IMG/VR virus record: IMGVR_UViG_3300048503_000037 | Strand: one strand, 5' to 3' | DNA from: an uncultured virus (IMG/VR IMGVR_UViG_3300048503_000037) | Taxonomy: Duplodnaviria > Heunggongvirae > Uroviricota > Caudoviricetes | Length of the DNA stretch: 64,000 bases | Shown: piece by piece, positions 5,879 through 32,257 of the stretch | How positions within the stretch are numbered: position 1 is the stretch's first letter | Layout of the letters: the number at the start of each line of letters is the position of its first letter | Made by a program: the position numbers and the translations under genes | The notes under the pieces: model-generated | The model's input: only the letters and a program-made list of their open reading frames with translations | The model's database searches: none | What the model was told of the DNA's origin: nothing

Positions 5879-6047
5879 CAAGTTCCGGCCATCCCCCTCG
5901 GGGTAAGCTGGCCGGGAGGTGCGCGGAGCGTGCGCACGCTTCATGTATACGCAGCCGGAGCGGAGTTGATGCGGTTCAAGGATACCGCTAAGATCGAGTC
6001 CGGACCGCGCACCAAACAAGTTCCGCAAATCAGGAAGGAAAACCGAG

Positions 6048-6578
6048 ATGAGCAGGAAAGATGAATTGATCTCTGACATAAGAGCCAAGCTGTCGAGTGG
6101 TTCCAATATGCCCTACTCGTTCTGGGCGAAGATGCCCGACTCGTTCTGGGCGAAGATGCCCTACTTGTTCTGGGCGAAGATGCCCGACTCGCTCTGGGCG
6201 AAGATGCCCGACTCGTTCTGGGCGAATATGCCCGACTCGTTCTGGGCGAAGATGCCCTACTCGTTCTGGGCGAATATGCCCGACTCGTTCTGGGCGAAGA
6301 TGCCCTACTCGCTCTGGGCGAAGATGCCCGACTCGCTCTGGGCGAAGATGCCCTACTCGTTCTGGGCGAAGATGCCCGACTCGTTCTGGGCGAAGATGCC
6401 CGACTCGCTCTGGGCGAAGATGCCCGACTCGCTCTGGGCGAATATGCCCTACTCGCTCTGGGCGAAGATGCCCGACTCGTTCTGGGCGAAGATGCCCGAC
6501 TCGCTCTGGGCGAAGAGAATCCTTGACGATCTTCCTGAATCGATGCTCGAATCTATCAAGGAATCGTTTTTGGAATAA
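6048..6578 (+). CDS. octapeptide-repeat protein, (MP[D/Y]S[F/L]WA[K/N])x17
   Basis: AGGAAGGA RBS; protein-like unique flanks; open through the whole array. Confidence 0.65.
   Translation: MSRKDELISDIRAKLSSGSNMPYSFWAKMPDSFWAKMPYLFWAKMPDSLWAKMPDSFWANMPDSFWAKMPYSFWANMPDSFWAKMPYSLWAKMPDSLWAKMPYSFWAKMPDSFWAKMPDSLWAKMPDSLWANMPYSLWAKMPDSFWAKMPDSLWAKRILDDLPESMLESIKESFLE
6108..6515 (+). repeat. tandem array of 17 x 24 bp
   Basis: ATGCCC[G/T]ACTCG[T/C]TCTGGGCGAA[G/T], counted directly. Confidence 0.95.
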
Positions 6579-6773
6579 CAAGTTCCCCGGCCGGTCGCAA
6601 GGCCCACAGACGTTGCGTCCGTACTGGTTGCCGCCTACAGCCAACCAAAACGGGCAGGCCGGGGATTCAATCGAAAGGAAAGGCACGGCATGAAACTCAA
6701 GTGCGAAGTGAGATATAATAGGGGTGTCGGGGCGCTAACCCCGGCAAAGCCTCATCGCCACAGGAGGGCGAAT

Positions 6774-15219: not shown

Positions 15220-15407
15220 AACGGAAAGTCATTCAACTTATGGTGACGCCGGCCACGGCGGAGTACGAGGGCGAGTTTCTGGCCCTATGTGACGATGGAA
15301 CAATCTGGACCAGAATCTACAAGTGCGACCCCGAAGGATCAAGATCAGCTTTCAACTGCCATTGGGAGTGGGATTTAATCGAAGGACCACCGGAGGTAAT
15401 AAATTGA
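15216..15407 (+). CDS. small hypothetical protein between groES and groEL
   Basis: TTG start after GGAGG; KVIQL...LALCDDGTIW; coupled at both ends. Confidence 0.6.
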   Translation: MKRKVIQLMVTPATAEYEGEFLALCDDGTIWTRIYKCDPEGSRSAFNCHWEWDLIEGPPEVIN

Positions 15408-17083
15408 GCAGAAAGATCATGAAGGGCGATGAAATCCGGCAGGCGATCCTGCGCGGCGTCAACACGCTGGCCGATGCGGTCACCTGCACACTGGGGCCCA
15501 AGGGCCGCAACGTCATCCTTGAACGCAATCCCATGTGGCCGCCAGTCGTTACCAAGGACGGCGTGACTGTGGCGAAGGAAGTCCGCGACCTGGCCGACCC
15601 CTACGAGAACGCCGGCGCCAACCTCATCCGCGAGGCCGCCAGCAAAACAAGCGACCAAGCGGGTGACGGCACCACCACGGCCACGCTGCTGGCCCAGGTG
15701 ATCTACCAGAAAGGTCTGGATTGCCTTGCGTCCGGCGCGAACCCAGTAGCCCTCAAGCGCGGCATCGACGCTGCTGTGACGGTCGTCACAGACCACATCA
15801 AGAGCATTGCCCAGCCGGTGCAGGACGATGAAACCATCGTGCGTGTGGGCACCATCTCCTCGAACGGCGACCGCTCCATCGGCGAGCTGATAGCCGACGC
15901 CATGAAGCGTGTCGGCCGGGATGGCGTTATCACCATCGGGGAATCCACGGACGCGGAGACCACGCTGCAGGTGGTCGAGGGGATGCAGATCGACCGCGGC
16001 TGGCTGGCTTACCCCTTCATCACGGACCCCGAGCGCCTGGAAGCGGTTCTCAATGAGCCCTACATCCTGCTCACCGAGCGCAAGCTGTTCACTATGACGC
16101 CGGAACTGGACACGGTGCTGGCCCAAGTGGGGCAGTCCGGCAGGCCGGTACTCATCATCGCTGGAGACTTCGACCAACCGTTTGTGATCTCGCTGATCCA
16201 CAACAACCAACTTGGGGTGTTGCGGTCGGTTGCGGTGAAGGCTCCAGCCTTCGGGGATCTGCGCCGGGCGATGCTGGAGGACATGGCTCTCGTGACAGGC
16301 GCCTACGCTTTCACAGAGGACTGCGGCAGGCCGCTGTCTACGGTGACCATGGACGACCTTGGGCGGGCCGTGCGCGTCACGGTGGGGCAGAGCTTCACCA
16401 CGATTGCCGGGGGGTATGGCGACGAGGAGGGCAAGAACAGCCGCATGACGCTCCTGCGATCGCTGATTGACTCGACCGAGAACGACCTTGACCGGGAGCG
16501 GCTCAAGCAGAGGCTGGCGCGGCTGGCGTCCGGGGTGGCAGTTATCAAGGTGGGGGCTGTCACAGAAGGGGAGATGCGGGAGCGCAAGGACAGAGTGGAC
16601 GACGCTGTTTGCGCCACGCGCTCGGCTGTCATGGAAGGCATCGTCCCTGGCGGCGGTAAGGCGCTGCTCCTATGCACTGACGCGCTACAGGCTCAGATCG
16701 ATATGCTGGCAGGCGACGAGAAGCTCGGTGCTCAGATCGTGCTTGCTGCGCTTGAATCTCCCACGCGCCAGATCGCCGCCAATGCCGGAATGAGCCAGGA
16801 AGAGACTGACTTCATCGTGAACGTGAACCGCGGCAAAGTGGATAGGAGACGCGCCAGATGGTGGTCAATATCTTACTGGTGTCGGCAATCCGATACCTCT
16901 AAACCTTTGGAGGACAGCCAGGCTGGGTGGAACGCTGCCACCGATAGATTTGAGAATTTGGTGGAGACTGGAGTTATCGACCCGGCGCGTGTCGTTCGGT
17001 GTAGCTTACAAAATGCGGCCTCAGTCAGTGCGCTGTTACTTACAACGCAGGCTATGGTTGCCTCGTTTCCAGACAAGAAATAG
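15404..17083 (+). CDS. groEL: chaperonin GroEL
   Basis: TLGPKGRNV, TKDGVTVAKE, GDGTTTAT, EGIVPGGG, GVIDPARV. Confidence 0.95.
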   Translation: MSRKIMKGDEIRQAILRGVNTLADAVTCTLGPKGRNVILERNPMWPPVVTKDGVTVAKEVRDLADPYENAGANLIREAASKTSDQAGDGTTTATLLAQVIYQKGLDCLASGANPVALKRGIDAAVTVVTDHIKSIAQPVQDDETIVRVGTISSNGDRSIGELIADAMKRVGRDGVITIGESTDAETTLQVVEGMQIDRGWLAYPFITDPERLEAVLNEPYILLTERKLFTMTPELDTVLAQVGQSGRPVLIIAGDFDQPFVISLIHNNQLGVLRSVAVKAPAFGDLRRAMLEDMALVTGAYAFTEDCGRPLSTVTMDDLGRAVRVTVGQSFTTIAGGYGDEEGKNSRMTLLRSLIDSTENDLDRERLKQRLARLASGVAVIKVGAVTEGEMRERKDRVDDAVCATRSAVMEGIVPGGGKALLLCTDALQAQIDMLAGDEKLGAQIVLAALESPTRQIAANAGMSQEETDFIVNVNRGKVDRRRARWWSISYWCRQSDTSKPLEDSQAGWNAATDRFENLVETGVIDPARVVRCSLQNAASVSALLLTTQAMVASFPDKK

Positions 17084-17172: not shown

Positions 17173-18714
17173 TTACCGATGTATCTGTGCTCGATTCAGC
17201 GACGGACGACCCATCGTAATAGGCGCGCCCTTCTTCTCGTTCTCCCGCTCCATCCGGTGCCGGGTGACCATGATGGACCGCTGATCCACGCCAGCCGCAA
17301 TGAGTGCCTGTATCTTCTCCTCGGTGACGATCTCATCGGGCTTGCGGTCGCCAGTTAGCCAGGTGTTGGTATAGAGGTCGCAGTCGATGCAATCGTCTAA
17401 CTCGTCTCCCTTGATCTTGAGGATGGCCCCAGGGCGGTCTGGGTCATGCTTGCGGCTAACGGCGGCCTCAAAGCTGTTCGGGGTAAGGTCGGTGTAAACA
17501 AATTCCCCGCGCGTGAGCCTTCCAGCGAGAGACTGAGCATTGCCGATGCTATCCTTGGCCGCGCTCATGAGAGTTAGCCCGTACTGGTCGAAGACCTCTT
17601 GGATGATTTCTCGGTTGCTCTTGCCGGTGCCGGTGTGGGCATCCATGGCCGGGTCGCAGTATCCGGTGATGATGCGCGTCCGCTTGCCGCCGATCTCACG
17701 CTCAAGGAACTTTTTGGCGATATGGGGCGCGTAATCGCTGGAGTACATCTTCCGTTCGATGTCCTCGCCGATCTTGAACATGCGATTGGCTTCATTCAGA
17801 AAGTAAAGGCCCGTCGCCGCCGCCGATCCAGACATGCCGTAATCCATGACAATCAGGTGCAGATGCCACCATTCTTCACGGCACTCAGAGTAAGGCAGGA
17901 TGTAACTCTCGTTGAGGAACGGGAAGAATGCTCCCTCTGTATGGCACCAGCAGCCGGCGATCAGCTTCTTTTGAATGTCGGCTGTCTGCGACATCAGCAT
18001 GGCGAGCTTGCGCTCATCGTAGGCTGGATTGTCTTTGAGTAGCGCTGGAATGAAGGCCGTCGTCATCATGACGGGCATCAAGTCTTTCTTCCATGTGGCG
18101 CCAGCGTAGACCGCCGCAGGCTTCACGCACCGCTCAGGATGGCAGACTGGGCATTCACTATTCAGGAACACATGCCGCAGCCAGGGCGTCGAGGGGTTCG
18201 CGGTGAGCCTCACGCGATCTCTGAGACCGTACTCTGTCGGGGTAGACACCCATGGCAGCAAGGAGCGGACGCGCTCCTCCGTCTGAAACTGCGCTTCATC
18301 AATGCCCAGCCAGGAGATAGGCTTGCCGGTGTAGAGTTCAACGTCCTTGTCGCTGGCCATGTACCCCAGGCGCATCATGGCGCCGGAGGGGAACTTCCAG
18401 AGCTTGCCGCCGTCGGACTTCCGGCCGCCCAAGGGCGAGTAGATGCGCTCCATCTCGTCCATGAGGTTGGTCATTTCGGTGTAGGACTTGCGGAGCAGAA
18501 TGCCGCGGAACCGGGGGTTATCGTACTCTTGGGCGGAGTCCGCCACCAGCCAGTTCGACTTGCCGCCGCCTGATGCTCCACCATACAGCACAAACTGCGC
18601 GCGGCTTTCGATGGCTGTGAGTTGCGGGGAACTGTTTGGAGCCCACCCACTGACCTCCGTAACATTGGCAGGGAGCGGCAGGAGGCCGCGATCTTCAAGA
18701 AGGATCAGGCCCAT
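17173..18714 (-). CDS. terL: terminase large subunit
   Basis: Walker A YGGASGGGKS, Walker B LGIDEA, LTANP, nuclease MDYG and DD..D. Confidence 0.9.
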   Translation of the reverse strand: MGLILLEDRGLLPLPANVTEVSGWAPNSSPQLTAIESRAQFVLYGGASGGGKSNWLVADSAQEYDNPRFRGILLRKSYTEMTNLMDEMERIYSPLGGRKSDGGKLWKFPSGAMMRLGYMASDKDVELYTGKPISWLGIDEAQFQTEERVRSLLPWVSTPTEYGLRDRVRLTANPSTPWLRHVFLNSECPVCHPERCVKPAAVYAGATWKKDLMPVMMTTAFIPALLKDNPAYDERKLAMLMSQTADIQKKLIAGCWCHTEGAFFPFLNESYILPYSECREEWWHLHLIVMDYGMSGSAAATGLYFLNEANRMFKIGEDIERKMYSSDYAPHIAKKFLEREIGGKRTRIITGYCDPAMDAHTGTGKSNREIIQEVFDQYGLTLMSAAKDSIGNAQSLAGRLTRGEFVYTDLTPNSFEAAVSRKHDPDRPGAILKIKGDELDDCIDCDLYTNTWLTGDRKPDEIVTEEKIQALIAAGVDQRSIMVTRHRMERENEKKGAPITMGRPSLNRAQIHR

Positions 18715-18717
18715 CGG

Positions 18718-19332
18718 TTAGAAGTCCTTCCAAGGGTCTTCATCAGGTTCAAAGGCTGTCGGCTCGGGCGTTGGCGTGGGGGCGTAGCCTGTCGGCGGCT
18801 GGAAGCCCTGCCGGATGCGCTCCTGCACGGTGGACTGCGGCGCGCGGTTGGTCACCACCTGCCGAGTCTCGGTGATCTGGTGCGTGATGATGGTCTGCTC
18901 GGCCGGGCGGTAGATGCGCGGTGCCTCATCCTTGGTCGGGCCGCTGCTGGCGTCCGGCACAAAGTTGTCATCGAGCAGCAACCCGATGCGCTTGTATCCC
19001 ATCTCGATGGCGTTGACTTTGGGGGTAGCCAGCGACGGCGTTTCCATCAGCGTCTTGCGGGGGATGGTGATTACCTGCTTGAGGTTGGCGTCCAGCATCT
19101 CGACATTGATAAGCCGCTTCTTGACGATCTGGAGGTTCACTTCGGACGTGATGTTCTCCATGCGCCGGGTGATCTCCTCATGCACAGCCTTGCGGCGGTA
19201 GAGGCCGGCGCCAGCCTTGGACGGGAATCCAGCCTCGACGGCGGCCTTGGACACGTCCCGGCAGGCGCAGTAGGCGTCAACGAATTTGTATTCGTCCGCC
19301 GACAGCGGCGGTGCGATGATCTGGGTTTCCAT
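18718..19332 (-). CDS. probable terminase small subunit
   Basis: N-terminal HTH-like KFVDAY...KAAVEAGF; directly upstream of terL. Confidence 0.65.
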   Translation of the reverse strand: METQIIAPPLSADEYKFVDAYCACRDVSKAAVEAGFPSKAGAGLYRRKAVHEEITRRMENITSEVNLQIVKKRLINVEMLDANLKQVITIPRKTLMETPSLATPKVNAIEMGYKRIGLLLDDNFVPDASSGPTKDEAPRIYRPAEQTIITHQITETRQVVTNRAPQSTVQERIRQGFQPPTGYAPTPTPEPTAFEPDEDPWKDF

Positions 19333-22300
19333 CAGATGACGCCCTTTCCGGATGTCGTGGCTGGGGCTGTGTCCGTCTGCCCCATAGCTTTATCGAAAGC
19401 ATCGTAGAGCTTCTCTCGCTGCTCGTCGTCAGCCACTTTGTCGATGTCCTTCTCGTGGCGCTCCAGAATAGGCTCCATGGCTTCACGTTCGTCGGCGGTT
19501 GCCTTGGCCCATACATTTAGCATCTGCTCAATGGTGAGGTTCTTGACGGCGCGCGCGATAGGCTCCTCGTCGGACTCTCGCTCAGCTTTGGCCACATCCT
19601 TGTCGGTGAGCTTGCCCTCGTCCACGTACTTGTCGATCTGCTTTTGGTCAACCTCGTCCTCTCGGTACATGCGGACAACCGCGTCGAGGGCGGCATAGTG
19701 CGCGGCCTGGTCCTGCGTTTTGGTGCCCGGTGGCCGGTTCTCCATAGAATACTGCCGAGCCTGGTTGATGGCTTCGCTGTTCTGGATAAACGCCGGGGCG
19801 GGCTGGAATCCAAGTTGGCCAAGCGCCACGTCGCCGGGGTGCTTCTTTGCCTCTTGCAGCATCTCTTGCAGAGATGGCCCGGCCCCGCGTTGCTGGAGTA
19901 ATTTCGCAGCGCCAGAGACAGAGAACGGGACCGCCTGACTTCCAGCCCAGCGGGAGAACTGGCCAAGTTGCGCCATGAGCGGGTCGTCTTTGTGCCGGAT
20001 CTCCGTTCCGTAGAAGTCGCGGTTGTTGATGGCCTCGGCGGTCGCTTCCCAAATGGGAGCCATCTTGTTGAGCGCTGTCTTGATGGGGTCGTGCGCGAAC
20101 GAGAAAACATCCTTCATGTAACCGGGAATGGAGTGCCGTTGGCCATTGGCTGTTTCGGGGTAAAAGTAATCCTTCCACGTCTGCGGGCGCTTGCTAGTCC
20201 ATAGGTAGCTGAGGATGCCGCCGAATAGCGCGCTCACCAAGGGAAGGGCGATACCGAAGGCCAGCCGCGGCGTGACTCGTGGAATCTGACCCGAGGCGGC
20301 GCGTCCAGCTTGGCGCCCTACGTCGGCCACTGCGCCGCCCAGTTCTCGGTAGCTTCCGAAGTTCCAGCCTACGGAGCGGGTGGCAAGGTTGAGGGCATCG
20401 CGGACACCCTTGTGCCAGAAGAGATTGTCATAGACCACCTGCCCGAAACGGTTGTCGATCGAGTCCCAGGCTTCCTGCATCCTCGACCGCGTGAGCCCTT
20501 CGCTCCAGCCCTGCTTTTGGGCGCTGTCGAGAATGTCGTGGGCCATGCCGTAAAAGGCTCCGAGTTTCATCCGTGGCACATAGAAGTCCATGACGGGCGC
20601 GACCGCCGCATGGAGGATGGCTGCGGGGATCGGCGTGAGGCCTTCCAGTACCGCACCATTGCGCCATGCGTTGATAACCTTGTCGAGCGGTTTGAGTTCG
20701 ATGGTGTTCTGGCGAATACGGCCGCCGGCTGATGCCAATGCTTTCGCTTCCTCGGCCATCTTTGCGTAGCTTCCGGGGGTCAGATATTCGCGCATGAGCC
20801 GAGAGCCATTGACCATCGTATGCAGCAGCGACGGAAAGACAGATGCGCCCTTGGCGAGCGAGAATCCCGCGCGCAGGGGTTTGCCCTCAGCGAGCTGCTG
20901 AATGCCCAGGGCAACGTCAGAGGTCGCAGCATTGATGCTCGTGGTCGAAGCGTGGAAGGCCGAGATGCCAAGCTGGAGAGCGTTGAGGTTCTGATTGGCC
21001 CAGTTGAGCGTGTCGTAGATGGTAGAGCGGCCAGCCATGCCGCGAGAAACAAAGTTGTTGAAGATGCGGGCGGCCTCGGCGGGAGCATAGTAGTGGCCGC
21101 GAATGTAAAGATGGCCATCGTCGTCATAGTTCTGGACGGTCCCGATGCGGTCGTCGAGTTGGGTCCAGCCCTCGGGCGGCTGCTTGCCAATGCGGACCAT
21201 CTTCGCCGTGCCGGAGTCCTGCATCATCTTCAATGTTTGGTGACCCATCAAGAACTGCGCCATCTCCGCGTACTTGGTCAGGAACGAATCGACAGGGTTC
21301 CAACTGACCGGCTTGAATCCAAGGTCGATGCCGTCCTGCATGGTCGGGATGGTGCGCTGCTTGAGGAATGATCCTTTTCCCGCGAACGGCTTCTTGCCGG
21401 TGATGAGCGCCTTGATGGTGGCCGATACCTGCGATGGGCGCTCCCAGATATGCGGGAAGTAATTCTCGATGTAGTCTTGCAGGACTTCGGGCTTGAGCGC
21501 CTGGAGTTGGGCCGCGCATGGAGTCGAACGCGCCCTTGAAGAGATTGGCGAGAGCCTGGTCCCTGGGTGCCAGCGTGTCCACCGTGCCGGACTCGACGGC
21601 GTTCCAGAACTTCATGGAGTCGTCGCGGGTACGGGTGCGCCACTCCTTCGATGCGTCCTTGAGTTTGTGAATGGCGATAGCGACCTTACGGTCCATCTCG
21701 CCGCGCGTCTCGCGCATCATAGCGCGCTGGGTGTCACCGTGGCCTGGGGCGTCGGAGAGCCAGTCCGCCATGCGGTCGCCGATGTCGGGGAATAGGCGGT
21801 TGAAGAGTTGGGGATCAGCAAAGCCGGTGTAGAACGTGCTGCCAAGGTCGGACTTCTTTTGCTTGGCTTCGGCGGCGGTATTCTCGGCTTCGGCGAGATT
21901 CTCCCGTGCTGCCTTGAGTTTGTCTTGCAGGAACTCTCGATCTTCCGAGCGCGACCGCCTTAAGTCCTGCTCAGTCTCTTCGATCTGGGCCTTATGGAAG
22001 GCTATGAGCTTGTCTGGTTCTAACTCCTTCGGCGCGCGCGGGACGCTTCTCTTGGCCGTTCCGGGGATGGTATGTGTCGGCTCGGCGAGGCGGACGGCGC
22101 GGACTTGAGCAGCCGGTCGATGGCCGCCGGGGTGTTCTTGACGAGGAACTTGCCGTCGTTCGGAACCTCAATGCGGATGAAGTCGTTCGGGAACTCGGCG
22201 GGGCGCGCGATGGCCTCTCCGATGCTATCAGGAGCTTTCTTGACGAGACTCTCCCAATCCCAGCCGCGCGCGTACTTCGAGGTCCATGCGTCCTTCACTG

Positions 22301-25300
22301 GCTCCAGCGCCTTGATGAAATACTCGGCCTGGTACTTCCACTTATTCTTGTCGGGGTCAGTCACGAGCTTCTCTTCAGGCTCGGTGAGTGGCAGGCCGGA
22401 AGTCTTGACCGCATGTTCCGCGTCGGCAATGCGGCCTTGAAGGACAGCGACTTGCGGATTCGTTTTTCCAAAATGACTTCTGTCTTTTCCGAGCATTGCT
22501 GCGAGTTCCGCTTTCCACTGCTCTAACTCGCTCGGCGGTTCTGTCCCCGGCGCAACGGCGGAGGCGTCTGCTTTGACTGCGGCAACCGGAACTGGTGCGG
22601 ACTTCGGCGCGATTTCAGCAACGGGTGCTTTCTCTGGAACGGGCCTCGCTTCCATCGCCTTGAGATCGTTCGGCGTCATGGCCGTTGCGCCTTCTCTGAC
22701 AGCCTTTGCAAGCTCAGCGCCGCGCCCTCTCAAATCTTTATCAGCTTCCAGTTCTTTTTGGGGTCTGTTCCAGTTGCCGATGTCAGCCAACCGGACGGCT
22801 GCAATCTTCGCATTATCGCGGTTGCTGAGTCCTCTGAGAATTGCCAGCCCACTTGGGATATGAGAGACTTCCCAATCGCTTCCACTGCCGCGCTTGTTGG
22901 AGAACGTTCGCTCCGAAATCGCTTTGTGAACTATCAGACCCCCGAGCGTATCCCCCTTAACTTCTGGGAGTTCGCCTTTCGGTCCTCTCGGAATCATCGT
23001 ACCGGGCGTAAACTTTGCGCGGGCGAGACGGTCGCGCATCTCGGTGGTGAATCGCTCCTGGAGTTCGGCGGTGTGCGCTCTCTCCATCTCCTCGGTTTCG
23101 CGCTTGGCTTGCGCCTCAGCATCGCGGTCAGCCCTGTCTTTGGCGCGGCTGTCGTACTCGTCCTTGGCTGCTTTGTTGAATGAGGTCCAGCGGTCCTGAG
23201 TACCGATACCAGAGCGGTCGAGAACACTCTCCCATCCCGCCTTGGCAAGATCGTGAATCTTGCCGATCTTCAACCGTCCATTGTCCCACGTCATCTGATA
23301 GCGCCCATCGCGGATGATTAGCTGGTCGCCCTCAATGATGGCTGGCTTGTCTTTCTCCTGGTATGTGCGGAGGGTTCGCTCGATGTCCTCGCGCTGGCCG
23401 CCGCGTTCCGGCTGTGCAGAGCCGATGGTGATGTCTGAGGAGTTCAGTTTTCTTGCCGCCGCCTTCATCGCCCTTCCGAACGGGTCGTCCTCCGGGTTCG
23501 TGTACTGGATGAACATCGCTCCCTGCATTTTCTTTCTCCTTCCCTTCAATCGACTGCGCATAGTCGTGCTCCGTCTTGGAAACGACCCACTCTGTTCCGT
23601 CTGCACCGTGGATGCGATAAGACGGAACCTTGATGCCAGCCTTTTGCTGTGCGCGGAGTTCGTTGTACTTGATGGTGGTCGGATGGCTCTGGTTCCCGGT
23701 TGGCACTCCGGCCCGGCGCATGGCTCCCAGTTCGCGGTCCAACTTTCTCTCTGCCGCGTCGTCCTGGACCTGCTTGATGGACGTGGTTCCCCCGCCCGCC
23801 ATTCGTTCGTCGATGATCTGGCGACGGGTGAGAACTTGGCCGGATTCGCGCCGAACCTGGGTGTCGAGGTACTTGTCGGCCTTCGCTTGCTGGGCACGCT
23901 TAAACCGTTCAGTGAGGCTCTCTGGCTTCTTGGGCTGTGCCTCTACCTTCGAGGATTCAATGGGTTTAGATTCACCGCCGCCTATTTGGTCCGTACGCGC
24001 TGGGCGGTCCATGACCTTTGCGCGCGCGGCGGTGGAGAACTGCGGCTTGGAAATTCCTTTGAGTTGGACCTCTTCGGAGTTGCCATTGCGGTCAGTGATC
24101 GAGATTGATTTGACGGTGAACTTCTGTCCGCCGGTTTCAGTCATGCCGGTGTAACGGTGGGCCTCCTCCGGCTTGACGTAGGCCAGTGTGGCGTGAGGTT
24201 TGTACTCAGGGAACGACCGCTCGACAAAGTTGCCGTGCTTGTCAATCTCCTTTTCCATGCGGCGCAGATCAGCGGACTCCACCGGGACCACAATCGGCGC
24301 GGCCCCATCGCTGTGCTCGCTGGGTGGGAATGCCTGAGTCTTGCCAAGCGTGGCCTCGAATGGTGCTTGCTTCTCCAGATAGGCTCGGATGCCTGCGGTG
24401 TCACCGCCATCGATGCCATAGCGCACAGTAATATGCGAATCGTTGACCATCCCCTCGCCCGCGAGGTCTTCCGGGAGAATGGCCTTGCGCATACGGGCGA
24501 GCGCCTTCCCTGCGTCGCTGCCGGGGGGGATGTCGGCTTGGGTATTGCCGTGCTTGAATTTTGGTTCTACTTCTTTCCCGCGATTCTCTTCCCCGCCCGT
24601 GAGTTGATCAGGTTTCTTTTCCGGCGTTCCTTTCTGTACTTTTTCTGGTCCTCCGCCGAATCGCTCATTAGCCTCGCGCATCAGGACGACGTAGCCGCGA
24701 TCAGTCCCTTCAAGGTACTCGGCCTCTGTTGGCAAGTCTGATTCTTTAGCAAGATCCCACCAATCCCGTGCAACTATGGCCGATTTATCAGGACGGGAGC
24801 CTATGGTATCCCCTGGCTTCATGCCGCCCCAATAAGCGCTGAGTTGTTTCTGGAATCGTTCTTGCACGGGACCAGGGAGTTTCCAGTAAGTATCTTCCCA
24901 GAACTTATCGGAGATTGCGCGCGGTGATTCCCCGTTCTCAATCATGTCATCGAGGACACCTTGCCCCTGCTGGTCCATAGCAGCACGACGCAACCACGCG
25001 CCGACTATTTGCTCGTACCGCTCTTTTGGGCGATTCTCTTCCCCGCCCGGCTTGGCTTGGACGGCGCTTTCTCCGGCAGGTTGAGACCCTTGCTCGACCG
25101 GTTGAACTCGTCCACCGTCTTCGCGCCCACCTTGTCCCGGTTGGCGTTCATCCACTTGCGCTGCTGGTTGCTTTTGAATGGCACCTTGGGCCTCCTCTGG
25201 TCTACCGTTTGCAGCATTACCGGCAGGCTGCTCTGCGCTGATCCGCTGTTCATGTCCAGGCTCCTTCGCCAGAGTCCCGTCGAGATCCACGTACAATGCC

Positions 25301-28136
25301 TTGCCCGCTGGAACCTCCGGCATTTCAAACGGCTTATCTTGATTTGTAGATACGTTGACCTCGTTGTCGAGCAGCGCGCCGAAGTCGTGGCCCTTGACGT
25401 TGGTCACAGGGATGTCGCCAAGTCCATTCTTCTGGACCCACGCGGTAACCTCGGGGTCGCCAGCGCGCGCGGTGAATATCTTGACGGGGGTTCCCTTGGC
25501 CGCGAGAGCCTTGATCTGCTCTACGCGCGTGGTCAGCGCTGGGCCTGGGGGCGTCTGTGGGACGTTGGCGGTTGCATCGGCGGGCGTGATGTCCTTGCCG
25601 TTGGCTAGAACCGAACCCTTGGGCGTGTTGACCATCCACCGGCCGCCGTTGGGCTCGTTGGGGTTGCCGCCCTTGATGGTACCTGCGGTGCCGTCCTTGA
25701 GGGTGACGGGCGTTCCCTTGGTGAGTGGCTTGGCTGGCGCAGGGTTGCCGAGTTGCGTTTGATCCTTGGACTCTGACAGCGCGGCGCGGCCTTGGTTCTC
25801 CGGTTGCTTGGCATCCTGAGCCTTGGCCTTGTCCATGGCGGCCTTGATCTGCGCGCCGAGGTCGTCAACCTCTTTCTGCGCGGCCTTGTGCTGCCAGCTT
25901 CCCGGCTTGGCCGCGTCAAGGTCCGCTTGCGCCTCTTTTGCTGGGCGTAGAGGTCGTCCGTCTCCTTCATGGCCTTGGCGACGGCCGGGCCGGGGATCAC
26001 CTGAAGCTCTGACACCTGATTGGGTTCACCGGGCTTGCCGGTCTGCACGCCATATTGAGGGATATTCAGACCGTTGTTGTCGATCTTGTCTTTCTGGACC
26101 ACCGGCAACTGAGACTCGATGGCCTGCTGGACAGCCGGCACAGCGTCGGGGTTCGGGGCCACCACGCGCACACCGAGATTGTCGATGTTGGTTTCGGGCG
26201 GCTTCCCGCGGTCGTCCTTGTTCTCGATCGAGTCGGTGGACTTCACGCGCGGGCCGACGACTTCGGCGCCGGGCACGGCGGCGGCGACTTGCTGCGCGGC
26301 CTGCTCCAAGATGGGCTTCTGATCCTGTGCGGACTGGCGCAGTTCGGCAGGTTCGCCGCTGGCTTGCACCGCTGGACGCTGGCCCGCTTCTGGCGCGGCT
26401 GGGGCGTTTGGCGCTGCGGTGGGGGGAATGGTCGTCGGGGGCGTCTGCGGCGCGGCCTGGGGAGATTCTGGGGCTGGTTGGATGTTGGACGGAGGCGAGA
26501 CCATCACAGCGTTGCTGGTGGGCTGCGGCGGGGCCGGCGTAACAGGAGCAGGCGGCGGCACAATCTTGGGGATGATCGGCGTCTTGCGGGCTGCTGTCTC
26601 GCCGGGCGGTGGCAGACCTGGCCGGTTGACTAGCACATTGCCCTGCGCGTCCACGATCGCGCCTCGGTTGGGAACCGCATCGGGTCGGGAGGCGAACTGC
26701 GTCGGCGGCGTGGTGCGCTCGACGGCGGTAGCGGGATTGAACGGAGGCGGAGATGCTTGGGGGTTTGGCGGAGCTTCGCCTGCGGTGGTCGCGGGCAGTT
26801 GCGCAGCGGGGCGCTGGGGGAGCGGGAATGTGGGGGTGTCGTCGGGAAACTCCACCGGGGGCAGCGGCCCTGCTTCTCCCGCTCCCAGCATCAGCGGCTC
26901 TTTCGGAGTGTAAACGCCAAGATTCAAGTCGGGGGCTGGCGTGGCTGTTGGATGAGGAAGGGCTTCCCATCCCAGAGCGGCTCCGCCCGCTCCGGCCACG
27001 TTACCAGCCAATTCCTGTACGGATGGAGTTGCGCCAAGCGCCTTGGCTCCCGCCTGCGCGCCAGTTTGAAGGGTGGATGCCGCACCCCATGCGAGAGCGG
27101 CCCGGATTGGATCGGCAATCAACTGCTCGCCGATAATCGGTTTGGATTCTTCAAAAGCACCGCCAATGACTTTGTTTGCGCCACCGGCCAGTTCGCTACC
27201 AGTCTGTTGACGGACGCCACGGGATGCCAGCACGCGCTGGAGAGCGCCTTCATCCCAGTCGGGATGCTCTCCGGCTAACTTATTGTAAGCATCGGTGTAC
27301 GCTTGGTCCGACGCAACCCTCATCCCCTGATTGATGTCTTTGGCGGCCTGAATCGGATGGTAGGGGAAAGACTCGTTTTTAACACGCTCAATGCGGCCCG
27401 AGTCTGTTTCTGTGGGGGTCAAGCCTAGCGCGCTGGACACCTTGGGAGCGTAGGTCTGGAGAGTTTCCCCTGGGTCGCTGTTCGCAATCCAATCGCGCGC
27501 ACGCTGGCTCCAAGTTGGCGCAGGAGCAGCGCCAATGGTGGATGCCGCACCCCATGCGAGAGCGGCCCGGATTGGATAGGCAATCAACTGCTCGCCGTTA
27601 ATCGGTTTGGATTCTTCTAAAACACCGCCAATGACTTTGTTTGCGCCACCGGCCAGTTCGCTACCAGTCTGTTGACGGACGCCACGGGATGCCAGCACGC
27701 GCTGGAGAGCGCCTTCATCCCAGTCGGGATGCTCTCCGGCTAACTTATTGTAAGCATCGGTGTACGCTTGGTCCGACGCAACCCTCATCCCCTGATCGAT
27801 GTCTTTGGCGGCCTGAATCGGATGGTAGGGGAAAGACTCGTTTTTAACACGCTCAATGCGGCCCGAGTCTGTTTCTGTGGGGGTCAAGCCTAGCGCGCTG
27901 GACACCTTGGGAGCGTAGGTCTGGAGAGTTTCCCCTGGGTCGCTGTTCGCAATCCAATCGCGCGCACGCTGGCTCCAAGTTGGCGCAGGAGCAGCGCCAA
28001 TGGTGGCGTTGGGGAGTTGGGCCGCAGACTTTGGCAGAGGAACCGCCGTACTGTCATCGAACGTAACTCCAGCGGGCTGCGCTCCAGCTACAGGTACTGC
28101 GGTGCTCTCGTCGAACTGGACGGCTGTCTGGGCCAT
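19332..28136 (-). CDS. giant polyvalent virion/DNA-ejection protein (~2,900 aa if joined), present as five ORF pieces
   Basis: pieces 25605-28136, 23332-25836, 22020-23897, 21124-21771, 19332-21341; FDESTAVP N-terminal repeats; internal enzyme-like domains; helical C-terminus; follows other ejection-type genes. Confidence 0.65.
25005..25184 (-). CDS. small basic protein overprinted inside the giant gene (MPFKS..QR.WM type)
   Basis: AGAGGAGG RBS then GTG; 59 aa in a frame different from the host gene. Confidence 0.6.
   Translation of the reverse strand: MPFKSNQQRKWMNANRDKVGAKTVDEFNRSSKGLNLPEKAPSKPSRAGKRIAQKSGTSK
27072..28006. repeat. 465-bp tandem duplication (155 aa)
   Basis: GGTGG junctions at 27072, 27537 and 28002; 5 substitutions seen between copies. 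Confidence 0.9.
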
Positions 28137-29786
28137 CTATTTCACCACGCCGAGATCGCGTTTGTTGGCATCGCGGTAGTGATACTGATTGTCAGAACCG
28201 AGCGCCATATCCGCTGCGCCGTCCGGGGCCGGCGCCGTCGGGGTTGGCGGCGTAGGCTTTTTGGCCTGATTGCCTGCCGGGGCGGTCTGCGTGGCCTGCC
28301 GCGCTGCGCGGCCCGTAGGCTTCCCTGCCCCCGCATCGGCCGGATCGAACCGCACACCGAGCGGCTGCATCTTCTTCTGGCCCAACTGCTGGTCGAGTTT
28401 CGACGAAATCTCATTCTTTTTGTCGGTGTACTCGCTGGGATTCAATACGTCGTTTGGATTATTGGGGTTCTCGTACTGGTTGCGGCGAGGGTTGTAAGTG
28501 TACTTGTCCTGGAGGCCTTTGATTTGCTCGGTGGCGGCGTCGATCATAGACTTGCGGAAGGCGCTGTGAGCCTCTCCATCTTCCGGCTTGTATTGGAACT
28601 TCCTGATTTCAGTCTCGCGATCGTAATCGAGAGCGGCCTTGAGCGCAGCTTTCTTTGCTGGATCTTTCTCAAGTGCCCAAGCGGACGAGGTCGCCTCAAA
28701 TGTAGTCGGAATCTTCCCTTGGCTCTGGTAGTCGGCGACTTGCTGCTTGATGTTGGCAAGCTGACCAGCAACGTCCGCGCTTTCCTTTCGGGCCTGGGCC
28801 ACGTCCACGCGAGACTGCGCCGTCTGCCCCTGCGCGGCCACAGTGCCAATATCCTTAATTCCGGTGATGACATCCTTCGCCCGGCCAGTGTCTTCCTTGT
28901 AGACATCCTCGGCCTGCTTTTCCTTTGCGTTGATGACATCCGTCAGCCCGGCTCGCTGTTGCGCTGCGATCGAGAACGCACGGTTGGGAGCACCGTAGGC
29001 TGTCGCGCCCACCGCCGCCGGGTCAACCGCGCCCAGCACGGCTCCGCGAATGCCGCCGCGCGCCAAACCCTCGACGCCACCGAGAACACCGCGTCCGAAG
29101 CGCTGCCACTTGGTTGGGCGATATTGCGAGTCCATGGGGTTGAGGGGAGTTGTGGGTCTCTGCGCTTCCATGGGAGCCTCTGTCTGCGCAAGCGTCGGCT
29201 GCCCAGAAAGATTCTTGCTGTAGTCAATCCCCATCTGGCTCGTCTGCTGGATGATCTTCTGATTGGGATCTTCCGCAGCACCGCCGCCGGGCTGCACATT
29301 GGCCATTGCCGCGCCCGTCGAGTCCATCTGTGGATTGGGAGCGTTGGTCGCCGGAACCTGGGACTGCGCCGCCCCATCCGCCAAGCTCTGGCCAAATGCT
29401 CCAGTGACTCCAGGGGTAAAGCTCGATGTGTCATTGCGTCCGACTGATGCCGGGGTAGGCTGGGCCTGGGGAGTCGGCTGCTCGCTCGCGGCTTGCGCTA
29501 ACTGAGACACGGGCTGTGCCTGGTTGGCCGCCGTCCCTGCCGCCGGTGCTGGCTTTGCGGCCTGCGCCACTGCGGGCTGGGGAGTGCCGGCAGACTTCGC
29601 AAGCGCGCTGGTTGCAACTGGGGCAGGCGCGGCATTGGCGGGCTGGTAGGGAACCCCTGCGCGCATGGCCGCCATGTACGCTTGTGGGTTGCCGGACGCG
29701 ACTACCTTGTCCCAATCGAGACCCAGCGCCGAGATTGGCGACGCTGAAGGAATGATGCTTTGAAGATCATTGTCGTTCGGTCCCAT
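28137..29786 (-). CDS. probable ejection/internal virion protein
   Basis: Ala/Gln/Pro-rich; Gly-rich hydrophobic stretch GVLGGVEGLARGGIRGAVLGAV; position. Confidence 0.55.
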   Translation of the reverse strand: MGPNDNDLQSIIPSASPISALGLDWDKVVASGNPQAYMAAMRAGVPYQPANAAPAPVATSALAKSAGTPQPAVAQAAKPAPAAGTAANQAQPVSQLAQAASEQPTPQAQPTPASVGRNDTSSFTPGVTGAFGQSLADGAAQSQVPATNAPNPQMDSTGAAMANVQPGGGAAEDPNQKIIQQTSQMGIDYSKNLSGQPTLAQTEAPMEAQRPTTPLNPMDSQYRPTKWQRFGRGVLGGVEGLARGGIRGAVLGAVDPAAVGATAYGAPNRAFSIAAQQRAGLTDVINAKEKQAEDVYKEDTGRAKDVITGIKDIGTVAAQGQTAQSRVDVAQARKESADVAGQLANIKQQVADYQSQGKIPTTFEATSSAWALEKDPAKKAALKAALDYDRETEIRKFQYKPEDGEAHSAFRKSMIDAATEQIKGLQDKYTYNPRRNQYENPNNPNDVLNPSEYTDKKNEISSKLDQQLGQKKMQPLGVRFDPADAGAGKPTGRAARQATQTAPAGNQAKKPTPPTPTAPAPDGAADMALGSDNQYHYRDANKRDLGVVK

Positions 29787-29787
29787 G

Positions 29788-30372
29788 CTATCCCCCTGCC
29801 GCTCCACCGGCGGCCTTTGCGATATTTTGCGGGGCATTTGCAAGATTTGCCCCAAATTCATCCAGCCAACTCGGCGTCTGGGCTGACGATACCTCAGATG
29901 TCATCTGGCCTGCGGCCGCGTTCGATTCTTGGCTGGCGAGATTCTGCTGTGCTGCGGTGATCTGATTCTGGCCACTGAGCACGTCCTGGCCGTATGTCGA
30001 ACCAGCCGCGAGCCTGCTCTGCGTTGCACTCGCTTCTTGTCCTCCAAGGGTTCGCTGAGCGTTCTGCTGCTCTGCCTCGCCTGCGGCTACGGGGGCGGCT
30101 GCATTCTGACCAGTACGCTGCGCCTGCTCTTGGTTCTTGGCTGCTGAGGCCTGTGCTGTTGCATCGGCTGTATTTGATAGTTGTTGGTTGGCAACCGACT
30201 GCGCCTGGCCACCTTGCACGTAAGGATTCGCCGCCGCAAACTTCGCAAGCTGGCTCTGCTGCGCGCCAATCTCAGCCTGGGTTGCTGCATCTGATGCTTG
30301 AGAAGCAGCCTCGTTGGTAGCCTGATCGGCAGAGGATGTGTTGAATGCTTGGGTTTCCTGCGCTCGGCTCAT
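29788..30372 (-). CDS. probable small ejection (pilot) protein
   Basis: Ala/Gln-rich helical protein with Gly-rich C-terminus; position. Confidence 0.55.
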   Translation of the reverse strand: MSRAQETQAFNTSSADQATNEAASQASDAATQAEIGAQQSQLAKFAAANPYVQGGQAQSVANQQLSNTADATAQASAAKNQEQAQRTGQNAAAPVAAGEAEQQNAQRTLGGQEASATQSRLAAGSTYGQDVLSGQNQITAAQQNLASQESNAAAGQMTSEVSSAQTPSWLDEFGANLANAPQNIAKAAGGAAGG

Positions 30373-30809
30373 GTGGTCTTCTCCTTCAAATCCCTGTAGA
30401 AATGTGTCAACCTGTCGTCATTCTGGCTGAATCCGGCCTTGGCGAGCGGCTTCCCGATAGTCTCGGCAAGGTCAATCGGCACGTCACAGTGAATGCCGTG
30501 GTAGCCCAGCCATGTCAGTACCGCCGCGAGCCCGTCAATGTCCCGGCGCGCGAACGCTGTAGCTTTGGGGTCGCAGCCCGCAAACATCAGCTCCGCCCTG
30601 CGCTCCACCCAGATAGCCTGTATGGGATCCTCTGTCGATTCATCGACGCCGACAAGTGCCACGGGAACCTGCTGGGTCAGTAGGCCGTGTTTGTCGAAGA
30701 ATACCGGCAAGGGATAACTCGTTCCATCCCGCTCGTTCTGCTCGCGGTGAAATCGTCGGATGTGATTCATGTGGGCCGGGATGGCGGGGCGAAGGATGAT
30801 CTTGTTCAC
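30369..30809 (-). CDS. hypothetical protein, possibly GNAT-like fold
   Basis: ILRPA N-terminus, LAKAGF C-terminus; lies between tail and ejection genes. Confidence 0.45.
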   Translation of the reverse strand: MNKIILRPAIPAHMNHIRRFHREQNERDGTSYPLPVFFDKHGLLTQQVPVALVGVDESTEDPIQAIWVERRAELMFAGCDPKATAFARRDIDGLAAVLTWLGYHGIHCDVPIDLAETIGKPLAKAGFSQNDDRLTHFYRDLKEKTT

Positions 30810-31171
30810 TTTGCTACCTTTGGTACATGCAACATTCTAAACGCCCCGTGCTGGGTAACTCTGTGGCCCGGCGGCACAATCGATGCCAGTGGACCAAGAT
30901 TGATCGGGACTCCATGCTTCCCGGCGTAGGCTACGATCGCGGCATGGTTGGCGTGGAGCGTTGCAAGCGCGGCATTGATCTCTGCCGCCGGGTCCAATCC
31001 GCCGAGGTCGCTCTGCGCGAAAGGCCTGTGACATTCCCGGCACTCTGGCACGTGAAGCAAGATGTCGATGTTGTGCTCGCCACCCGTGACCTGGTTGAAC
31101 AGGTGGATATGGTGGACGTGCGTGCGCCCGTCGATAAAATTATGCTCGTGCCCCTGCCGAACTGCCCACAT
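30806..31171 (-). CDS. hypothetical His/Cys-rich protein
   Basis: ATG 31171; CRECH motif. Confidence 0.5.
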   Translation of the reverse strand: MWAVRQGHEHNFIDGRTHVHHIHLFNQVTGGEHNIDILLHVPECRECHRPFAQSDLGGLDPAAEINAALATLHANHAAIVAYAGKHGVPINLGPLASIVPPGHRVTQHGAFRMLHVPKVAK

Positions 31172-31176
31172 ATCGT

Positions 31177-32257
31177 TTACCCCGTGGTCCCGTCGTTTAC
31201 GACCAGCCTTCCGCCGTTGCCGCCGATATTCTGGCCTCCGCCTGTTGATCCACCGAACCGTCCACCAGTTACCGTAACAGGCTGTGTACCTGGTGTGTAT
31301 CCAGTTCCCGCTGATCCGTTCGCAATCGAGATGAGAATGCCACCTGTAATTGTCTGCGCGCCCGGTGTTGCTCCCGTTCCCACGTCGGCGATGACGAGCG
31401 AAACAGGATCGCTCAAGGCGTTGCCGCCGCTCACCACATTCCACGCTGTCACGTTGCCGGTCCCATTGACCGTGACGGTCACCACAGGCAAGACTAGATC
31501 GCCGCTCCCGACTACACTCACCGCGCCAATGGGGGTTACGCCGTCCGTCAGAACCTCAGGGAGTGTTCCACGTGCAACATAATCAGCGCCTTGGAAGCCG
31601 ACCACTTGCTCGACAGAGAAAGGCACGTTGATGATTGTGGCCGACGGCAGGATGGTGTCCACGCCGCCTTTGACCGATGGGTATTGAGTGTTGAGTCCGG
31701 ACTTGCCGTAAACCCTGATTACCGCCGAAGTTCCATCTACGCTCGATGCTGAGTCCACGGTCGCATAGTTCGTCTGGTTCAGTACCGTCGCATCGGACGA
31801 TGCGGCCGACGATTGAAGGCCGGAGGCCACCGCGCCGGGCTGCGTCTGGTAGGCGTTCCAGTTACTTTGGTCGTAGCTTGAGCGCAGCCGCCAAAAGACG
31901 GTGAGGTTCGGCTGGGCAACCGTTTGATGTGTAGATGTCGATACAGGCAGCGTCGTGACGCCGGACCCGCCAACAAAACTGGCGATGGTCGAGTAGCTCA
32001 GTTCGTGATAGAGCGTCTTGTTGATCGACTGCGTTGGATTGGTGATTGCGACAGTGAATATCCCATTTGCTCCGCTAACCTGTGAATGATGCAAGCGGGG
32101 GAGGCGCGCTCGATGGCTCCTGCGGTGAGTTAGTCGGCTCGATGAAGTTACTGCCAAGTTGATTGTTATGAACCTCAAGTTGGGCATAGATGCCGAGCAG
32201 CACGGTACGAAGCCCGAAGTCCCGAATTGCATTTATCTGCGCTTTACTTAGAGCCAT
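31177..32257 (-). CDS. putative tail protein (frame break near 32100)
   Basis: 32075-32257 continues into the 31177-32232 frame; beta-rich, Thr/Gly/Val-rich. Confidence 0.55.

Follow-up and report, generated by a model that had tools for sequence, protein, structure and literature searches.

A giant modular protein with RelA/SpoT-type, permuted HAD-like and 2H modules, a putative virion protein, encoded beside the terminase genes of an uncultured tailed phage

The gene described here lies on the minus strand of IMGVR_UViG_3300048503_000037, an uncultured peat virus of the Caudoviricetes known from a viral metagenome contig of 65,414 bases that is rated complete; the window, to which all coordinates refer, is a 64,000-nucleotide (nt) stretch of this record. 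Between positions 28136 and 19332, the minus strand of the record holds five long, overlapping open reading frames (ORFs) in different frames, at 28136-25605, 25836-23332, 23897-22020, 21771-21124 and 21341-19332, which encode 843, 834, 625, 215 and 669 amino acids (aa), respectively. The in-frame portions of the five pieces translate without a stop codon, and the ends of successive pieces at their junctions are arginine-rich nonsense, which argues for frame errors rather than for separate genes. After allowing for four 1-nt insertions or deletions (indels) in the record, the pieces join into one giant gene at 19332..28136, whose 8,805 bases correspond to 2,934 codons and a stop. By searching with the last piece, we found relatives in which the gene is an uninterrupted ORF, of 2,828 aa in L009, 1,987 aa in L008, 3,316 aa in L013, 1,941 aa in L014, 2,294 aa in L015, 2,088 aa in L016 and at least 2,157 aa in L037. 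A further family member, of 2,095 aa, is found in a prophage-like setting in the cultured Trichlorobacter thiogenes ATCC BAA-34 (L075, 3780-10067), where the PHROG matches of the neighbouring genes are uninformative. In the natural population, the five pieces constitute one reading frame. The preliminary description of this DNA, made from its sequence, had already taken them for a single giant protein of the phage polyvalent type rather than for separate genes, and both parts of that view are borne out, the first by the intact ORFs of the relatives, by ART-PolyVal and DdrB-ParB domains in homologues and by shuffled middle regions, and the second by contigs from four sequencing runs that, like the relatives, give one ORF.

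The four frame breaks can be placed to within a few bases. When the protein of L009 is laid on the window, its frame switches at about 25938/25917, 23549-23386, 22122-22068 and 21514/21509. For comparison with the record at the DNA level, we used Logan contigs of four runs (X1-X4), peat metagenomes sequenced in four studies, which contain 72-89% of the words sampled from the stretch; since the source sample may itself be among these runs, not all four count as independent of the record. Across the 8,805 bases, the contigs of all four runs show indel differences from the record only at the four breaks, and each of these differences restores the frame. At break 1 (25934..25935) the record lacks one base, which is inserted behind 25934 in X1-X3 and behind 25938 in the more divergent X4, and which is also present in both relatives that could be aligned as DNA. 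At break 2 (23441) the record has one extra base (a T in comparison with L009), which is omitted in all four runs, in X1 and X2 in part of the depth; L009 lacks it as well, and L008 yielded no DNA match there. Break 3 (22087..22088), which falls within the third switch of L009, is again a missing base, with an A inserted behind 22087 in each of the four runs. Finally, at break 4 (21509) the record has an extra C in a run of C, which is omitted in the four runs and is absent from five of five relatives, including the 98%-identical G001. Both the alignment to L009 and the contigs thus agree with the preliminary description, which had put breaks near 25940, 23400-23530, 22075 and 21510, and which located all four correctly.

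Since the contigs from the four runs carry none of the four indels, an intact version of the gene exists. When the 53 ORFs of an 80%-identical genome (G002) were compared with the window, frame switches appeared only in the giant gene and at about 32090. The latter marks a further candidate frame error at about 32081-32100, where a 397-aa ORF of G002 maps to two frames and where the window, compared with G001, has an uncompensated additional base at 32081. The breaks in the giant gene adjoin points of divergence between contigs of co-occurring variants, with loose ends at 21510, 23436 and 23456. The 58-kb contig of G001 begins and ends at the borders of 21850-32007 and lacks that region, and the contigs of all four runs fragment within it, with many loose ends, which fits several versions of the middle of the giant gene existing side by side in these peat communities. 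The four indels are very probably consensus errors in a strain-mixed region that is hard to assemble. We also considered programmed frameshifting and rejected it, because the relatives read straight through, because none of the sites is slippery (they include a C run and GAACTCCTC), and because the shifts alternate between -1 and +1. The N-terminal region contains, in addition, an in-frame tandem duplication (27072..28006) of 2 x 465 nt (155 aa) with copies that are 98% identical. One contig of X2 carries a single copy, jumping from 27332 to 27798, which may reflect either a variable copy number or a collapse of the repeat by short-read assembly.

In the middle of the protein, three modules related to nucleotide processing follow one another, the first being a RelA/SpoT-type nucleotide pyrophosphokinase module at 25935..26369, identified by BLASTP, Pfam matches in homologues, alignment, an AlphaFold model and Foldseek. 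The window piece is linked by BLASTP to 23 of 123 family proteins, and in three of these (P0017, P0037 and P0046) the stretches that align to it coincide with their PF04607 matches, at 28.2-28.8 bits against a cutoff of 27. In an alignment of 22 such modules, R41, K43, K51, D63 and E121 are invariant, which we take to be the R-x-K motif, the Lys, the Mg-binding Asp and the catalytic Glu. A search of the Protein Data Bank (PDB) with the alignment profile returned ten sequences at E<=10, nine of which are (p)ppGpp synthetases or GTP pyrophosphokinases (best E 0.0023), and the R-x-K...K...D stretch aligns to the synthetase of Thermus thermophilus Rel. The AlphaFold model has a predicted local distance difference test (pLDDT) of 90 and a predicted template modelling score (pTM) of 0.84, and its top Foldseek matches are SAS1, SAS2/RelP, Rel catalytic domains, Tas1 and CapRel (probability 1.00, E from 6.5e-6). 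Searches with single sequences were less productive: with the 145-aa piece, a homologue search among proteins of similar length gave 71 candidates, none of them significant, and single-sequence searches of the PDB with this piece and with an 830-aa piece found nothing. The RelA/SpoT-like assignment of the preliminary description is upheld by the confident model matching small alarmone synthetases, by the invariant catalytic residues and by the homologous modules above the Pfam cutoff, and we regard the synthetase fold and the catalytic constellation as established at the level of model and alignment. Which acceptor the module would use, GTP/GDP, ATP or a tRNA, cannot be read from the sequence.

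The second module, at 25255..25545, is a HAD-like phosphatase module, recognised by its motifs and by the family alignment, in which the motifs appear in an unusual order: IFTAR (motif II), TNVKG (III) and LLDNE (IV) come first, and YVDLDGTLA (I) stands at the end. This permuted order, II-III-IV-I, is common to twelve family proteins, and six others (P0021, P0026, P0028, P0029, P0048 and P0049) have a homologous module in the usual order, starting with IGVDLDGTLAHYDGFKG..IG.P. We aligned the six usual-order modules to a doubled copy of the window module, and in six of six cases the best alignment crosses the junction between the two copies, with scores of 91-111 compared with 76-87 for the undoubled module and a maximum of 55 for shuffled sequences. 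Because the best alignments cross the junction in all six cases, the test gives direct evidence, at the level of sequence, for a circular permutation of the HAD-like module within a single family. In a limited full-text literature search, three papers contained both terms, circular permutation and HAD, and the passage considered was generic; a circularly permuted HAD domain may already have been described.

The model of the HAD-like module has a pLDDT of 88.7, and a structural search with VIA-align, which is bound to the order of the chain, gave weak matches that are nearly all HAD enzymes, including the phosphatase of T4 Pnkp and deoxyribonucleotidases. The alignment covers only residues 1-93 of the model and leaves out the C-terminal strand that carries motif I, which is unavoidable when a permuted domain is aligned in chain order. 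Foldseek found nothing for the model at E<=0.001 in the PDB or BFVD, a profile search of the PDB with the HAD-like alignment gave no match, and Pfam HAD families reached nothing better than E 0.063 in 17 members and did not match the six usual-order relatives. The sole match of the module in a sequence library is phrog_1238, at E 7e-5. The HAD-like reading of the preliminary description therefore stands in so far as all four motifs are present, in a permuted order that it had not foreseen, and is not backed by any Pfam, PDB-sequence or Foldseek match; on balance, we consider it likely that the module is a HAD domain.

The third module, at 24082..24435, is a 2H phosphoesterase with the motifs HITVRYG and HATLAYV. 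It matches PF13563 at E 6e-8 with 33.3 bits (cutoff 27), and both HxT motifs are invariant in eight of eight sequences (H31/T33 and H111/T113), in agreement with the earlier assignment; a profile search of the PDB with the 2H alignment found nothing. The preliminary description had the three modules separated by disordered linkers. Low-complexity linkers are present, but so are two conserved elements, namely a small glycine- and beta-rich segment at 25558..25752, perhaps SH3-like, which is common to nine family proteins, and a helical domain of about 150 aa at 24523..24972, just upstream of the 2H module, which has matches in 11 family proteins.

What unites the family is the conserved C-terminal region of about 840 aa (19335..21855), which we refer to as the anchor. 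At 20199..20267 it contains a strongly hydrophobic, membrane-helix-like segment, the only one in the protein, with a Kyte-Doolittle 19-residue mean of up to 2.04 (residues 411-419 of piece P0008). In a search restricted to longer proteins, in which 8,000 candidates were scored, at least 461 giant proteins matched the anchor at E<=1e-5, and the best 120 of these span 1,302-3,606 aa. It is C-terminal in all 123 proteins examined, ending at a median distance of 18 residues from the end of the protein. A lead from a protein atlas, which associated the anchor with LPD38 (score 0.97; family on 67% of the members of one cluster), was dropped, as scans with the Pfam model (PF18857) gave no match, neither in the genome of the window at E<=10 nor in the records of five relatives at E<=1, although the control genomes were negative too, which makes this a weak test.

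Ahead of the anchor, the proteins vary widely. According to precomputed Pfam matches, the best 120 of the 461 family proteins include 18 with 2H, 9 with ddrB-ParB, 8 with an SNF2 helicase and N12-type methylase domains, 7 with GGDEF, 5 with ART-PolyVal, 4 with RelA_SpoT, 3 with an SLT transglycosylase and 3 with a Zeta-toxin-type kinase, and single cases of NlpC/P60, acetyltransferase, histidine phosphatase, DnaJ and M90 peptidase. GGDEF often occurs alongside 2H, and some of the 2H modules have sub-threshold or precomputed matches to Acb1. By BLASTP among the 123 family proteins, the RelA/SpoT module occurs in 23, the HAD-like module in 20 and the 2H module in 21; at least one of the three is present in 30 proteins and all three in 13, two of which have a truncated 2H. 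Even close relatives can differ in this way, as in P0010 from the same habitat, whose anchor is 99% identical, yet which has 2,118 aa and no 2H module. The comparison of domain content across related phages, which the preliminary description had proposed, thus reveals a C-terminal region that is kept while the other modules (RelA/SpoT, GGDEF, 2H, ART-PolyVal, DdrB-ParB, helicase-methylase and transglycosylase) are swapped.

The anchor also occurs in genome bins, at 44 loci distributed over many phyla, including Acidobacteriota, Nitrospirota, Armatimonadota, Verrucomicrobiota, Bacteroidota and Desulfuromonadales. Some of these loci lie on contigs of 0.3-5 Mb, which suggests that they are prophages. 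A 302-kb contig of an Acidobacteriota bin breaks off just after the start of an anchor region (L081, 7692-8078), which shares 71% DNA identity with window positions 21816-21428 and hints at prophage relatives in Acidobacteriota. Among 50,697 deposited phage genomes, neither megablast with the region nor tblastn with the 669-aa piece found a match.

The giant gene sits in a late operon, directly upstream of the genes for the small and the large terminase subunits. The small subunit (18718..19332, minus strand; phrog_51, E 1.2e-5) starts in an overlap with the stop of the giant gene, and the large subunit follows at 17173..18714 (minus strand; phrog_979, E 2.9e-30). On the other side, the stop of a gene for a 574-aa low-complexity protein (28137..29861, minus strand) abuts the start of the giant gene, and L008, L009 and L081 likewise encode a homologue of this protein upstream of the giant gene. 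The 574-aa protein has no family match, a single-sequence search of the PDB with it was empty, and the named rows of a protein-atlas search were at chance level (DotY 0.82, Inj_translocase 0.80). In L009, a gene at 835-1929, which lies upstream of that of a 528-aa protein and includes a homologue of a 194-aa protein of the window, has a match to Hint, a domain associated with inteins and homing endonucleases (PF05203, E 1.1e-5), that stays under the cutoff and may represent an intein-like insertion.

In distant relatives, the giant gene has recognisable virion genes on either side. In L014, genes for a tail protein/tail tubular protein (phrog_394, E 9e-37), a second tail protein (phrog_376, E 2e-148) and an internal virion protein (phrog_418, E 9e-23) are followed by a gene for a 489-aa protein, the giant gene, a gene for a 419-aa protein and one with a tail-fibre N-terminal domain. 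The order is that of T7-like phages, whose ejection proteins are gp14-gp16. Of the 50 loci that were examined by tblastn, L044 has the same flanks as L014, and L041 is the same sequence as L014. Three family members (P0039, P0040 and P0089) carry an N-terminal SLT transglycosylase that matches phrog_342, 'internal virion protein with endolysin domain', at E 1e-26 to 1e-33; the window pieces and P0001 have no PHROG match to internal virion proteins. A large phrog_3287 'virion structural protein' is encoded a few genes upstream in both the window and an Armatimonadota prophage (L049). Passages of PMC8954989 state that ejection proteins are mostly recognised through size and synteny rather than sequence. 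Because of the slot in L014 and L044, the SLT N-termini, the phrog_3287 protein shared by L049 and the window, and the adjacency to the terminase genes, taken together, a virion or ejection role appears to us to be the best reading for the giant protein, and a fairly probable one.

Building on this, we favour, with a probability of roughly 55%, the interpretation that the gene encodes a giant polyvalent protein which likely resides in the virion and would be delivered with the DNA, and which combines the C-terminal anchor with variable enzymes predicted to act on host nucleotide signalling at entry. The role of structural or ejection anchor would then fall to the C-terminal region of about 840 residues. 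From the RelA/SpoT module we would expect an alarmone-type nucleotide by which the host is reprogrammed or arrested, and from the 2H module the cleavage of cyclic nucleotides or of compounds with a 2',3'-cyclic phosphate, for instance immune second messengers; the HAD-like module would remove the remaining phosphate from the products, all of this before any phage gene is expressed. The preliminary description had pictured a pre-packaged kit that manipulates nucleotide signals or RNA ends, which is reasonable, and which, for polyvalent domains of this type, is essentially already put forward in the sections of PMC5512222 that deal with them. A more ambitious version is possible but doubtful: here the anchor would define a large family of podovirus ejection proteins across many phyla, a chassis for swappable nucleotide-signalling enzymes, the trio would form one pathway that makes and destroys signalling nucleotides at DNA entry, and the permuted HAD would be a natural circular permutation with both arrangements in one family.

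Several observations weigh against the interpretation that we favour. Packaging, delivery and the enzymatic activities are all predictions from sequence, and the record itself carries the four frameshifts. The flanking proteins of the window match no known tail or ejection family, its other late genes yield hardly any matches, and its structural proteins have no similarity by tblastn to L013-L016, including the T7-like neighbours of L014; the synteny with the ejection slot comes from relatives whose anchor is about 34% identical (L014). The anchor itself has no match in PHROG, Pfam or, by profile search, the PDB, T7 gp16 included. Two of the modules are also below threshold on the most pertinent models when the window sequence is taken by itself, with 16 bits for the RelA/SpoT piece on PF04607 and 19 bits for the 2H module on the Acb1 model PF23474 (cutoff 27 in both cases). 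Topology poses a further difficulty. The N-terminal part of T7 gp16 works in the periplasm, according to a passage of PMC8954989, and under a T7-like topology, ATP-dependent modules ahead of the anchor would face the wrong compartment, unless the protein reached the cytoplasm whole or in cleaved pieces; no protease module was seen in the protein.

These points leave room for other explanations, two of which concern the gene and its product as a whole. The four frame-breaking indels in 8.8 kb, compared with roughly one candidate elsewhere in the window, and the ATG at 25836 with which the second piece starts, could mean that the gene is truly broken in this genome, decaying or split, with its pieces made separately or not at all. 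We find this improbable, because none of the four indels recurs in the contigs of the four other runs or, for the one that it covers, in G001, because the out-of-frame tails are nonsense, and because shifts alternating -1, +1, -1, +1 beside points of variant divergence are what consensus errors in a mixed population would look like. Nor do we give much more credit to an intact giant protein that stays out of the virion and acts as a late cytoplasmic multi-enzyme, for example in host takeover or in the exclusion of other phages. Such a protein would be compatible with an anchor that resembles no known structural protein and has a single membrane-helix-like segment, but not easily with the translational coupling of the giant gene to a late-operon gene on one side and to the small terminase gene on the other, with the ejection-protein slot in the relatives, or with the N-terminal transglycosylases of family members, which make sense only for entry; moreover, the ART-PolyVal and DdrB-ParB domains of the homologues are tied to capsid packaging in a section of PMC5512222.

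A third explanation keeps the giant virion protein and changes the task of two of its enzymes, which would be the healing of RNA ends: the 2H module would open the 2',3'-cyclic phosphates that anticodon nucleases or HEPN RNases of the host leave behind, and the HAD-like module would remove the phosphate, much like the phosphatase half of T4 Pnkp, to which it does bear a resemblance. The frequent GGDEF partners and the 2H modules that lean towards Acb1 favour nucleotide signalling instead, and we rate RNA-end healing as unlikely, if somewhat less so than a broken gene or a cytoplasmic enzyme.

The closest parallels are the phage-type polyvalent proteins described by Iyer, Burroughs, Anand, de Souza and Aravind in 2017 (PMC5512222), who in the relevant sections list RelA/SpoT, GGDEF, 2H, DdrB-ParB and lysozyme among the domains of such proteins and suggest that these proteins are packaged in the capsid and act early. 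As in the proteins portrayed there, we find a giant polypeptide with many effector domains, architectures shuffled among homologues, and a late-gene location in phages with terminase-portal packaging, with probable delivery alongside the DNA and action in the first minutes; the family here holds RelA/SpoT, 2H, GGDEF, ART-PolyVal, DdrB-ParB, lysozyme-type and helicase-methylase modules. With the indels allowed for, the window protein has a RelA/SpoT fold and a 2H module in one frame, two distinct effector domains of a single chain, as is characteristic of polyvalent proteins. The differences are that the unifying domain is the unnamed C-terminal region of about 840 aa rather than MuF, an N4 polymerase or a metallopeptidase, as in those sections, and that the word 'phosphatase' is absent from the main text of PMC5512222, so that the permuted HAD-like module apparently falls outside the repertoire described there. 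The polyvalent kind has therefore been known since 2017, and what is new is the widespread unnamed anchor, its ejection-protein slot, and the permuted HAD-like module with both arrangements in one family.

Other likenesses are more partial. With T7 gp16 and podovirus ejection proteins, the giant protein shares the slot in the distant relatives L014 and L044, the rank of largest protein of the cluster and, in three members, a phrog_342-type transglycosylase. In contrast to T7 gp16, to which we detected no sequence similarity, it is two to three times longer and has cytoplasm-type enzymes before the conserved part, and the cluster of the window cannot be matched to T7-like genes. The RelA/SpoT module shares with SAS1/RelQ, RelP, Tas1 and CapRel the fold and, at the synthetase site, the conserved Arg/Lys, Asp and Glu positions, but is only 15-20% identical to them in sequence and is embedded in a giant protein. 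Like the anti-CBASS nuclease Acb1 of T4 (PMC9117128), the 2H module is a phage 2H phosphoesterase, and several family members have Acb1 matches; however, Acb1 is a small early protein, whereas the 2H here is part of a giant one and scores better on the general 2H model (33 versus 19 bits). A precedent for an ejection protein as a counter-defence factor is Gp15 of the ICP3 ejectosome, an inhibitor of a CBASS effector, which, by the account in bioRxiv 10.1101/2025.07.23.666291, acts by binding the effector and with no enzymatic modules involved.

Two further features of the window lie outside the giant gene. At 15323-17083 (plus strand), a gene for a full-length GroEL-type chaperonin (phrog_5725, E 8e-145) converges on the terminase genes and ends a replication and recombination module that comprises primosomal protein, HNH, RecE-like, Bet/RecT-like, SbcC-like and DnaB-like genes. 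In a megablast comparison of 6105-6516 with G001, the hits form a ladder offset by multiples of 24 nt, which indicates that the ORFs at 6030-6693 contain an array of 24-nt tandem repeats.

If the giant protein is ejected, soil and peat phages would bring ready-made enzymes into the cell, directed against nucleotide-based immunity or serving host shutdown, before transcription begins. With a family so large and modular, the anchor could be used as a bait for new counter-defence enzymes, which would be recognised through the parts fused to it. The occurrence of conventional and permuted HAD-like versions in one family offers a natural case of permutation tolerance in a catalytic Rossmann-like fold, and the relative in the cultured Trichlorobacter thiogenes strain opens the way to experiments.

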